Source: Spizellomyces punctatus DAOM BR117 (lineage: Eukaryota). Taken from it: a stretch of DNA of 64,000 nt. This document shows, piece by piece, positions 4,447-51,293 of this stretch. The notes under the pieces were generated by a model. That model had not been told where the DNA came from, did not search any database, and worked only from the letters and a program-made list of their open reading frames with translations. The stretch lies in NCBI GenBank assembly GCA_000182565.2, contig KQ257471.1; one strand, given 5' to 3'. Position 1 is the first letter of the stretch, and the number at the start of each line of letters is the position of its first letter. The translations under genes were made by a program, and so were the position numbers.

Positions 4447-4530
4447 CCGGCCTTAGCTCAGTTGGCAGTAGCATTAGACTGTAATGAACTAGCAATCTAA
4501 GGGTCCCCAGTTCGACTCTGGGAGGCCGGA
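4447..4530 (+). tRNA. tRNA-Tyr(GTA) with 10-nt intron
   Basis: Same exons; intron TGAACTAGCA; T-run near 4550. Confidence 0.95.
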
Positions 4531-6990: not shown

Positions 6991-7063
6991 GCTTCCTTAG
7001 CTCAGTTGGGAGAGCGTTAGACTGAAGATCTAAAGGTCTCGTGTTCAATCCACGAAGGGAGCA
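6991..7063 (+). tRNA. tRNA-Phe(GAA), intronless
   Basis: GCTTCCTTAGCTCAGTTGGGAGAGCGTTAGACTGAAGATCTAAAGGTCTCGTGTTCAATCCACGAAGGGAGCA, 73-nt cloverleaf. Confidence 0.97.
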
Positions 7064-27096: not shown

Positions 27097-29579
27097 CTAT
27101 TCGGCATCCTCTCCTTCCAAAGGAGTTGAAACAGCTTCCTCACGACCACCCTTCCCTCGTACCTTCCTCCGGTTCGCCAGCTCCTGCTCTCTCTTCTCAA
27201 TATTTGATGCCAAAAGTGAGGATCGGAATGACAGTGCTCGCGTTCGCTCAATGACTTGCTGGTAGATTGAATTGTACTGTGTGCCCATGATAACCGTGTT
27301 CTGTGAAACAGGGTCCACACATATCAGAGTGCAAATCAACAAGCCGTTGCTCTCATATCACCCACTCACCGTCTTGGAGTCAATCTTGGCGTCCATCCGC
27401 GCATTTCGGATCAGGTTCACAATCCATTTTTCACCCGCTTCAGGGCTCAAATCGAGTTTCTGGCTCACATCCTTGATGTCAATGCATTGGTGGATACGGC
27501 AGTACGTCTCAAATATGAATAACCGTCCATTCTCCTTGAAGTCCTCTTGAAGTGAAACCAAAAAGAAATCGTTGGCAATCACTTCATCACACTCCTTGAG
27601 CTTCTGCTGTGCACCGTCAAAGTCAAAGTTGACGTAAAGACACTCAATAAACTCGGTAATCGGATCCCGGTAGGCATGGGACTCTTGCTGCACTACTTTA
27701 ATCAGGTCTTTGAGGACGTTGCGGCGCTTCTTGTTCACGACGACGGCAGTGGTGAGGTAACGGAGGATCCATGGGCATGCGGTCTGGATGGTATTGAGGT
27801 ATTGCGGTTGGAAGAATAGGTCGGCAATGCCGTCCCGGCCTTTGGGGTGGTTGAAAAAGACAAAGAGAGACCAGTGAATCAGCCAGGATCGCTGTTGGAG
27901 TGCTTGGAGGTGGGAGGTGAAGTTGCGCTGTTCAATCATTTCTTTCAGTCGGTTTAGGTCGTCGTACGCGGTTTCCCAGTTTTGGGTGAGAATCTCAGCG
28001 GCGAGCTTTCCCCAGAGCGAGCTGACGTTGAGGTCGTAGTCTGTGGACTATAGCAAGAAACAGGGTTAGCACATGCCAGAGCATCATTGTGGAAGGCTTA
28101 AAAAGTCGACTTTTACGATGCCCATAACACATCCCAAATTAAAAAAACGCATGACTCACCAAAATACGAAAATGATACAGCATCTCTGCAGCGCTGGAGT
28201 AGTTACCAATGTCGTAATTGTAGAGCGCGAATTCGTAAAGTGCGTTGAGCATTTCAGGTTTGAACTGTAAGAGGGACAATGTCAGAATAGAGCTTCAAAT
28301 TCAAATATTAGAGTATCATTTGCCTTACGTTGTAGTTGTCACTTAGAAACTGGATGTTGGCGAGTTTGTCCTGCTTAAGCTGCTGGATGACGATAGGGTC
28401 CTGGATCATATCCATGATTTCGGAGCTCTGCTCCGTCAATTCCTCAAACTTTTGCAAGACACCCGCACGCCGCTCTTCGTATCCTAGTAGAGGTAACGTT
28501 CGTGGTTAGTCGAGTGGTACTCCAACAATCCTACGGCTACAGTCTACAGTATCTCCGCAAGTCATTCTCGCCAGCAGACTACACATATCCAGACTGCCTG
28601 ATGGCTGAGATGTCGCCCACCCCACCAACATCAAGCCCGTGCAGATGTGCGGCAGATCTTTGAACGAGAAAAGGAAAAAAATATAGTCAGCGATCAGTTG
28701 AGGCATAGAGTCAAAATCCTCATGCGAGAAAGGTCACATCAGAAGATGTTATCTAGCGAATAATGAGGATATAATCATAGATATCATACAGCCAAAGGAA
28801 ACCATGTATCTCATCATTTGTGACCTTCCTTCATGAGTCTCGAATTTTAACAACGTACCTGATGGTTGAAAATATCGTCCACCCCACCAACATCAGCAAA
28901 GAGACAAGCCTATACAAATGTGCGGCTGATCTTTGATAAGAAAGCAAAAAAGTACCGTTAGCAATCAGTCGATGCATAGAGTCAAAAGCTTATGCTAGGA
29001 AGGTCACATCAGAAGATGTTATCTAGCGAATAATGAGGATATAATCATAGATATCATACAGCCAAAGGAAACCATGTATCTCATCATTTGTGACCTTCCC
29101 ATCACGAGGCTCGGGTTTAACAACGTACCTGATGGTTGATTGTCGTCATTCCACTTCCATATCTGAATGCTTCCCATCCACGCTTTCACGAATCCAAATA
29201 CTCTTGCCCTCCATCAGAAGTATCATGCTTACCCGGCTCATTATCTCCCTCATCTTCCAACCCATTAATCTCTTTATAAATCTGATTGGTATAGTCAATC
29301 ATCTTCGTTTTCGAGAGAAGGTCATACTTGGCCTGCATCAAGTCTTTGTGGGAGTAGATCTATTGAAACAGAGTGAGTACTACTTGTCGTCAAGTCCCAG
29401 TAGGTCTGGTGAACCTCCATGTCAATTGCTGCGACTTGCTTTTACAGCAGCAAGCGTCAAGATCCATACTGAATGAAAAGCAACCATACCTCTTTTCCCA
29501 ACAAAAACTCGAGTAATGGAGCCACCATATGGCGGTCCAGGTAGTGACCAATCTTTGTCGTAAGGTCGTGTTGAGCCAT
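27097..29579 (-). CDS. EIF3E: translation initiation factor 3 subunit E (Int6)
   Basis: Six exons in consistent phase: 29579-29490 ([30 protein letters not shown]), 29359-29233, 28483-28329, 28264-28160, 28047-27370, 27300-27097. Hallmarks [59 protein letters not shown] (PCI domain). Confidence 0.96.
28731..28826 (-). ncRNA. C/D box snoRNA, SNORD53-like guide for LSU rRNA (copy 2)
   Basis: Minus strand: terminal stem AGGTCACA/TGTGACCT, C box ATGATGA, guide TTCCTTTGGCTGT, D' ATGA, C' ATGATTA, second antisense TTCGCTAGATA, D box CTGA. Both elements complement the conserved LSU segment UAUCUAGCGAAACCACAGCCAAGGGAAC (recalled). Intronic, same strand as host. Confidence 0.88.
29001..29096 (-). ncRNA. 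C/D box snoRNA, SNORD53-like (copy 1)
   Basis: Identical to 28731-28826 at a 270-nt offset; terminal stem extends to GGAAGGTCACA/TGTGACCTTCC. Confidence 0.88.
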
Positions 29580-34133: not shown

Positions 34134-34206
34134 GCTTCCTTAGCTCAGTTGGGAGAGCGTTAGACTGAAGATCTAAAGGTCTCGTGTTCAATCCACGAAG
34201 GGAGCA
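34134..34206 (+). tRNA. tRNA-Phe(GAA)
   Basis: Identical to 6991-7063. Confidence 0.97.
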
Positions 34207-34397: not shown

Positions 34398-34470
34398 GCT
34401 TCCTTAGCTCAGTTGGGAGAGCGTTAGACTGAAGATCTAAAGGTCTCGTGTTCAATCCACGAAGGGAGCA
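34398..34470 (+). tRNA. tRNA-Phe(GAA)
   Basis: Identical to 6991-7063. Confidence 0.97.
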
Positions 34471-51220: not shown

Positions 51221-51293
51221 TGCTCCCTTCGTGGATTGAACACGAGACCTTTAGATCTTCAGTCTAACGCTCTCCCAACTGAGCTAAGGAAGC
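51221..51293 (-). tRNA. tRNA-Phe(GAA)
   Basis: Reverse complement identical to the other Phe copies. Confidence 0.97.

Follow-up and report, generated by a model that had tools for sequence, protein, structure and literature searches.

Two copies of a box C/D snoRNA in candidate nested introns within a coding intron of eIF3e in the chytrid Spizellomyces punctatus

In filamentous fungi, small nucleolar RNA (snoRNA) arrays are described as following a rule of one snoRNA per intron with tiny non-coding exons between the introns (Liu 2009; Neurospora clusters I-V). Stepwise, nested and recursive splicing of such arrays is reported from Euascomycetes, Debaryomyces, Yarrowia and Candida (Luo 2013; Donovan 2016), and the ordered removal of introns from fungal snoRNA hosts is documented there by expressed sequence tags, reverse transcription PCR and RNA sequencing (Liu 2009; Luo 2013; Donovan 2016). 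Here, a locus with a related layout was analysed in the chytrid Spizellomyces punctatus DAOM BR117, within a stretch of 64,000 nucleotides (nt) of contig KQ257471.1 (GenBank assembly GCA_000182565.2), hereafter the window. Intron 2 of the gene for subunit e of eukaryotic translation initiation factor 3 (eIF3e) contains two copies of a box C/D snoRNA, each surrounded by its own splice signals. We propose, with a confidence that we would call evenly balanced, that each copy sits in its own functional spliceosomal intron of about 200 nt nested in the 749-nt coding intron, and that these two inner introns, A and B, would be removed first and the 350-nt remainder afterwards. Like the fungal polycistronic hosts, the locus has one C/D snoRNA per short intron-like unit (198 and 201 nt) and small non-coding pieces between (the units lie 72 nt apart). 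Unlike those hosts, which are stand-alone non-coding transcripts, it lies between coding exons 2 and 3 of eIF3e, so that its "exons" must be discarded with the outer intron to keep the frame. Compared with the published fungal arrays, the location inside a coding intron and the chytrid lineage are different. The literature search returned no description of this arrangement and none of S. punctatus snoRNAs; chytrid snoRNAs or more complex introns may be listed in the supplementary files to Luo 2013 and "The fungal snoRNAome", which lay outside that search.

Several systems outside the fungal arrays resemble the locus in part. Human hosts with several snoRNAs per intron are described as using alternative splicing and nonsense-mediated decay (NMD) (Lykke-Andersen 2014, via Wilusz and Wilusz 2014). 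They share with the locus a protein-coding, translation-related host, more than one snoRNA between coding exons, and internal sites to decide which lariats are formed. In that account the human hosts rely on alternative exons and decay, whereas here a productive nested route would be possible, the spacers are not annotated as exons and the lineage is a chytrid. In the loci of snoRNA-ended long non-coding RNAs (sno-lncRNAs), an excised intron carries two snoRNAs, and these protect the RNA that lies between, as summarized in a review. The presence of two C/D snoRNAs in one annotated intron is common to both situations; however, sno-lncRNA loci as reviewed there have no internal splice sites around or between the snoRNAs, whereas the set that accompanies each snoRNA here speaks against a sno-lncRNA fate. 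Spliceosome profiling of Cryptococcus neoformans, available as a preprint, found a short intron inside a 391-nt intron, of which only the outer junction was visible in polyA RNA. The preprint text available to us reports no snoRNA cargo for those nested introns, whereas here two nested units each surround a snoRNA. Stwintrons, described as the spliceosomal twin introns of filamentous fungi, likewise consist of an intron within an intron and are removed by consecutive splicing reactions. Identity with a stwintron was nevertheless rejected, because the inner intron there interrupts the outer donor, branch or acceptor, whereas the outer signals of the eIF3e intron are uninterrupted (GTAAGC at 29232-29227, GACTAAC at 28511-28505 and TAG at 28486-28484).

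The elements of the locus are collected in Table 1. The initial annotation of this DNA had described the outer intron with its three signals, the two inner introns with complete splice sets and a remainder of 350 nt. All of these elements were found where it had placed them, and the arithmetic is right (749-198-201 = 350). A full donor, branch and acceptor is thus present twice inside an intron that has its own intact signals. In both units the AAG acceptor is the first AG past the branch, and the only two hexamers of the form GTRNGT in the whole 749 nt are the two inner donors. The leader piece contains no usable acceptor ahead of unit A, and the tail that follows unit B contains no donor. 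The interval from the outer donor to inner donor A was also considered as the seat of a conventional exon, which was rejected, as the sole branch-like site there would give an intron of about 30 nt.

Table 1. Elements of the eIF3e intron 2 region, in the direction of transcription (a slash marks a splice point).
Feature	Coordinates	Strand	Length	Signals and content	Basis
eIF3e exon 2	29233..29359	-	127 nt	ends in phase 1	spliced alignment of SPPG_08496, Pfam eIF3_N
eIF3e intron 2 (outer)	28484..29232	-	749 nt	CGG/GTAAGC; branch GACTAAC (A at 28506); acceptor CTACTAG	sequence, spliced alignment
Leader piece	29129..29226	-		outer donor to inner donor A	sequence, alignment
Inner intron-like unit A	28931..29128	-	198 nt	CAG/GTACGT; GCTAAC (A at 28958); 75% pyrimidine tract; AAG	sequence, alignment
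Box C/D snoRNA copy A	29000..29097	-	98 nt		boxes, terminal stem, fold
Spacer ("mini-exon 1")	28859..28930	-	72 nt	inner acceptor A to inner donor B; conserved G-rich block GATGTTGGTGGGGTGG	sequence, alignment
Inner intron-like unit B	28658..28858	-	201 nt	CAG/GTACGT; GCTGAC (A at 28687); 85% pyrimidine tract; AAG	sequence, alignment
Box C/D snoRNA copy B	28730..28827	-	98 nt	98/98 identical to copy A	boxes, alignment
Tail of outer intron	28484..28657	-	174 nt	third partial repeat, then unique sequence with outer branch and acceptor	sequence, alignment
eIF3e exon 3	28329..28483	-			spliced alignment of SPPG_08496, Pfam eIF3_N 69-118

Alignment with MAFFT revealed that units A and B form a tandem duplication of about 270 nt with a mean column identity of 89% over 304 columns, a feature absent from the initial annotation. 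Tandem Repeats Finder reported no tandem repeat here, though the MAFFT alignments show one. The last ~25 nt of the leader piece are similar to the ends of both later spacer pieces. The third partial repeat ends in CATCAG/GCAGTC (28598/28597); it thus reaches as far as the exon side of a donor, but the donor itself has been lost and no snoRNA lies behind it. Outside the snoRNA, 142 of 198 columns are identical between A and B, and the differences are unevenly spread. The donor (6/6, within an identical block of 21 nt) and the acceptor (3/3, within an identical block of 9 nt) are unchanged. The branch is identical at 5 of 7 positions with both versions still reading CTRAC, and the pyrimidine tract is identical at only 16 of 25 positions, yet is 75% and 85% pyrimidine in the two copies. 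The other regions are 55-81% identical. The probability that the 56 mismatch or gap columns among 198 would miss the 15 critical columns by chance was 0.0055 (0.023 if 11 columns are counted). The signal set was also sought around random 98-nt placements in the window, requiring GTRNGT 10-70 nt upstream, CTRAY 20-80 nt downstream, a first AG 8-35 nt past the branch and at least 60% pyrimidine between the two; 72 of 18,172 placements had the full set (0.40%, real introns included), and both real copies pass. These results demonstrated that the inner signal sets are non-random, and they favour a reading as real splice signals kept by selection.

Two further features of the spacer pieces were observed. 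The 16-nt G-rich block GATGTTGGTGGGGTGG (28879-28894 and 28617-28632, minus strand) is identical in both spacers, the surroundings of which are about 71% identical. In addition, each of the three spacer pieces has a (C)UGAUG element able to pair with the CAUCAG that precedes the donor position; the folds are no better than those of shuffled sequences.

If the inner signals were unused leftovers of a duplicated or captured unit, for example from a non-coding host gene, the 749 nt would be removed in one step as a single lariat. An endonuclease would then release the snoRNAs, in the manner of intronic clusters of plants and flies, or the two would persist as one long RNA with snoRNA ends. The public gene model requires the outer junction only, sno-lncRNAs are a known product of introns with two snoRNAs (according to the review), and Liu 2009 cites reports of rice and Drosophila intronic clusters that lack internal splicing. 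However, relics should decay at the pace of their surroundings, which are 64-81% identical, yet both units have retained every critical position, and signals have been lost only where no snoRNA follows. Folding likewise supported no stable processing hairpin: compared with shuffled sequences, the spacer between the two snoRNAs, where an RNase III-type cut would be placed, had a z-score of +1.23, and the three spacer pieces had z-scores of -0.18, -0.25 and +0.23 (leader +0.23, 72-nt piece -0.18).

The geometry of the units points in the same direction. The snoRNA's 3' end lies 42-45 nt from the inner branch and 69-74 nt from the inner acceptor; its distance to the outer branch is 494 nt for copy A and 224 nt for copy B, which is far for a snoRNA released from the complete intron. 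The optimum is said to lie about 50 nt before the branch, a figure reportedly from work by Hirose and Steitz in 2001. Release of both snoRNAs from one 749-nt lariat is judged improbable. That the distance to the 3' splice site matters for the processing of intronic C/D snoRNAs is known (Liu 2009).

The window is nuclear DNA of a fungus, and the host gene was identified as eIF3e on the minus strand. A Pfam search placed the eIF3_N domain (PF09440) in exons 1-3 and, following it, the PCI domain (PF01399) in exon 5, the domain order of eIF3 subunit E. Profile positions 1-25 of eIF3_N are covered by exon 1, 27-62 by exon 2 and 69-118 by exon 3; the match is unbroken over the exon 2/3 junction, and exon 2 contributes residues 1-36 of its 42. 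In a protein search, the exon of 229 amino acids (aa) was 100% identical to a public 452-aa protein, SPPG_08496 (P0001; uncharacterized, S. punctatus DAOM BR117), and the closest proteins after this one among the matches listed came from other Spizellomycetales (90-94%; 1,806 proteins at E <= 1e-20 among 2,473 candidates). Spliced alignment of SPPG_08496 to the window gave six exons separated by introns of 130, 749, 64, 112 and 69 nt, in agreement with the earlier remark that intron 2 is several times longer than the others. The donors of these introns are, in order, GTATGG, GTAAGC, GTAAGG, GTGAGT and GTGAGT, and the acceptors are TAG (three) and CAG (two). Donor usage of the species was taken from these five introns, and an ab initio intron census of the window (200 and 1,945 candidates, mostly false) was dropped. 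Across the exon 2/exon 3 junction the protein reads ...NEPGYEERR..., so the public gene model uses exactly the junction 29233^28483 that the initial annotation had named as keeping eIF3e in frame. Neither of the two plus-strand open reading frames over the region carried a Pfam family.

In Powellomyces hirtus, the eIF3e model (P0002) begins with 27 unrelated residues, and its family match starts at ...GYEERR, i.e., at the position of the exon 2/3 junction. The gene caller may have failed there on a long or complex intron, and this odd start hints that the unusual intron may be shared with P. hirtus.

The order in which the introns could be removed was deduced from the signals. The U1-complementary consensus is matched by the inner donors at 8 of 9 positions and by the outer one at 7 of 9. 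Since the inner donors lie closer to the inner acceptors than the outer donor does, and are no weaker, A and B would be expected to leave first. Once inner sites are used, only this inner-first order would be productive, because exon 2 joined to the 72-nt spacer runs into an in-frame TGA stop, no donor follows unit B and no usable acceptor precedes unit A. The same stop codon also fits a different use of the same splice signals, in which the inner sites would serve mainly together with the outer donor (by 29233^28930, or by lengthening exon 2 to 29129) rather than with each other. The spacer would then act as a poison exon or the inner donor as an alternative 5' site, and the snoRNAs would come from stop-containing eIF3e isoforms cleared by NMD, their output uncoupled from the mRNA and traded against it. 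The human multi-snoRNA introns offer a precedent: alternative splicing of their hosts is described as extensive and as yielding NMD substrates (Wilusz and Wilusz 2014). Against it stand the proximity and strength of the inner donors given above, the cost of one eIF3e message for each such transcript, and the tail: as this has no donor, the products would retain 174 nt of junk sequence. A main role for such isoforms therefore appears unlikely.

Recursive splicing was considered as well. In this process the outer donor would be joined first to a CAG/GTACGT point as a zero-length exon, the donor would be regenerated, and the intron would leave in two or three successive lariats. The locus offers two perfect ratchet-like AG/GTACGT sites (29129/29128 and 28859/28858), each of which would regenerate a donor. 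The spliced alignment of SPPG_08496 accepts zero-length exons at these sites: of its nine formal solutions, those listed differ solely by such exons at AG/GT points in intron 2. Splicing of that kind is also reported for snoRNA clusters of Candida and Debaryomyces and for a Cryptococcus gene. However, no CTRAY occurs in the 40 nt upstream of the first site, and the second is preceded only by GCTGAT at 34 nt and a G-rich tract with 45% pyrimidine. The true sets of branch, tract and acceptor lie downstream of each snoRNA and not upstream of the CAG/GT points. The initial annotation had left nested and recursive excision side by side; the nested form gains from the kept signals, the geometry and the frame logic, whereas the recursive form loses because its CAG/GT points lack a good upstream branch and tract, and we regard it as very unlikely.

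The arrangement of exon, intron with snoRNA, 72-nt exon, intron with snoRNA and exon is also the layout described for fungal UHG-like hosts (Liu 2009), and the spacer pieces are unrelated to the eIF3e exons. Both would be accounted for by an independent host gene, small and non-coding, that is nested in the same orientation inside intron 2, has a promoter to itself and splices the two introns on its own transcript. The first inner donor, though, follows the outer donor at a distance of only 104 nt, and transcripts that read through from the eIF3e promoter would carry the same signals in any case; a separate gene is highly improbable.

Nested splicing would work as follows. The two copies would have arisen by the tandem duplication of about 270 nt. 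During transcription, each strong CAG/GTACGT donor would pair with the closest branch and acceptor, and each snoRNA would exit on its own lariat of about 200 nt, at 42-45 nt upstream of the branch, a position that would couple C/D small nucleolar ribonucleoprotein assembly to splicing. The lariat would then be debranched and the snoRNA trimmed to size. Removal of A and B would also take out two decoy acceptors, so that the outer donor (29232) would be left with the outer branch and acceptor (28506/28484) alone, and excision of the 350-nt remainder would yield the in-frame eIF3e mRNA. Each host transcript could in this way give two snoRNAs and one mRNA while keeping to one snoRNA per lariat. 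A more far-reaching version, which we offer tentatively and hold to be rather doubtful, is that a coding intron of an early-diverging fungus has taken up a two-intron array like that of a small nucleolar RNA host gene (SNHG), which can be resolved only if nested splicing follows an obligate order. Inner-first removal would then yield two snoRNAs and the eIF3e mRNA, whereas the outer donor, if used early, would lead to a stop-containing dead end. The order of splicing would be a built-in switch that sets the ratio of a ribosome-modifying snoRNA to the initiation factor.

Several observations weigh against nested splicing. Both inner acceptors are AAG, which none of the five annotated eIF3e introns uses. 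The inner acceptors could also be captured by the outer donor, with dead-end products as the result. The conservation statistic compares two paralogous copies in one genome, where mutation at uneven rates or gene conversion in patches could look like selection. The snoRNA itself reached the gathering score of no Rfam family; the best match was SNORD12 with 22.6 bits against a threshold of 43 (E = 0.12). Finally, one raw RNA run with the same species label, of which about 6% was read, gave 25 reads over 1,701 nt, and these included no junction in intron 2, inner or outer, at a depth far too low to tell. The introns were covered about as much as the exons, and both snoRNA copies had a read depth of 0 to 0.19, in a type of library that usually loses small RNAs. 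Junctions of the stop-containing isoforms discussed above were not seen either in these reads, with the same limit of depth. Two RNA-like contig sets (X2 and X3) contributed one contig each, covering 27950-28217 only, with intron 4 spliced (28047 to 28160) and no intron 2 junction; a further run (X1) gave 0 records.

Six molecules of the raw RNA run stop at 28695, one base short of a CTGAT motif in unit B. Judged from bin depths, they are short partial alignments on a low-complexity, A/T-rich stretch, which may be copies of one molecule or spurious, and were given no weight.

The cargo of both units is a box C/D snoRNA with a C box (AUGAUGA) near the 5' end, D' (AUGA) and C' (AUGAUUA) boxes inside and a D box (CUGA) near the 3' end. 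C and D are joined by a terminal stem of 7 bp that lengthens to 12-13 bp with G-U pairs in the flanks. The fold had a minimum free energy z-score of -2.00, and 4 of 200 shuffled sequences folded as well. The 13-nt guide before D' differs by one C-to-U change, compatible with G-U pairing, from the snoZ157 guide CCCUUGGCUGU followed by CUGA. The consensus guide of snoZ157 directly precedes CUGA, whereas in the window snoRNA the guide precedes D' (AUGA) and not D. Against the models of Rfam clan CL00063 (SNORD53/SNORD92 and snoZ157/R69/R10), no match was obtained even at E up to 10. Because the guide is common to the snoZ157 and SNORD53_SNORD92 clan, the snoRNA probably directs the large-subunit rRNA methylation of this clan, as judged from the guide sequence. 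Both antisense elements are presumably complementary to neighbouring stretches of the large-subunit rRNA. In a preprint, SNORD53/92 are tied to A3846/C3848 of human 28S rRNA and to accessory pairing.

The two copies are unchanged even at positions outside guides and boxes, although their flanks are only about 72% identical; this suggests gene conversion confined to the snoRNA or an unusually tight constraint. In the flank that extends the stem, one G-C pair of unit A is a G-U pair in unit B.

Metagenomes were searched with a pattern that joins the C box to the 13-nt element preceding D' and to D' itself; it matched eight loci, five of which were compared with Rfam. One (L005) scored 41.7 bits with snoZ157/R69/R10 and another (L006) 36.5 bits with SNORD53_SNORD92, both below gathering and both families belonging to CL00063. 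Near the match, none of the eight loci resembled the window unit beyond the searched pattern, and they are therefore uninformative on the intron; their wider flanks were not searched for eIF3e. Four matches in bacterial assemblies, from a scan of genome contigs, were taken as chance. One metagenome contig (L007:1-1633) contains three SNORD14-like matches about 400-540 nt apart, and the sequence flanking its same-guide snoRNA recurs about 320 nt downstream, which suggests a tandemly repeated snoRNA cluster in some eukaryote.

Elsewhere in the window, four scattered tRNA-Phe(GAA) genes that share one Rfam score and sequence were found at 6991-7063, 34134-34206 and 34398-34470 on the plus strand and at 51221-51293 on the minus strand. 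An 84-nt tRNA-Leu(TAA) lies at 4447-4530 and seems to contain an intron, and ARAGORN made an odd call at 170-253. A simple box-and-stem scan gave a third, weak C/D-like candidate on the minus strand at 2597-2735 (139 nt, GC-rich, 5-bp stem), which is probably due to chance. A scan for bacterial-type promoters and terminators gave results at chance level and is inapplicable to a fungus.

Long snoRNA-bearing introns of this type may mislead gene callers and are thus an annotation hazard. If the inner sites are unused, the locus is an ordinary duplicated intronic snoRNA. If the inner introns are used, it would be a compact natural test case for how an intron-definition spliceosome orders competing splice sites, and for how the rule of one snoRNA per lariat survives the duplication of a snoRNA inside a coding intron. 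Spizellomyces can be grown and is transformable, and with used inner introns it could be asked whether the outputs of snoRNA and host mRNA trade off in an early-diverging fungus.

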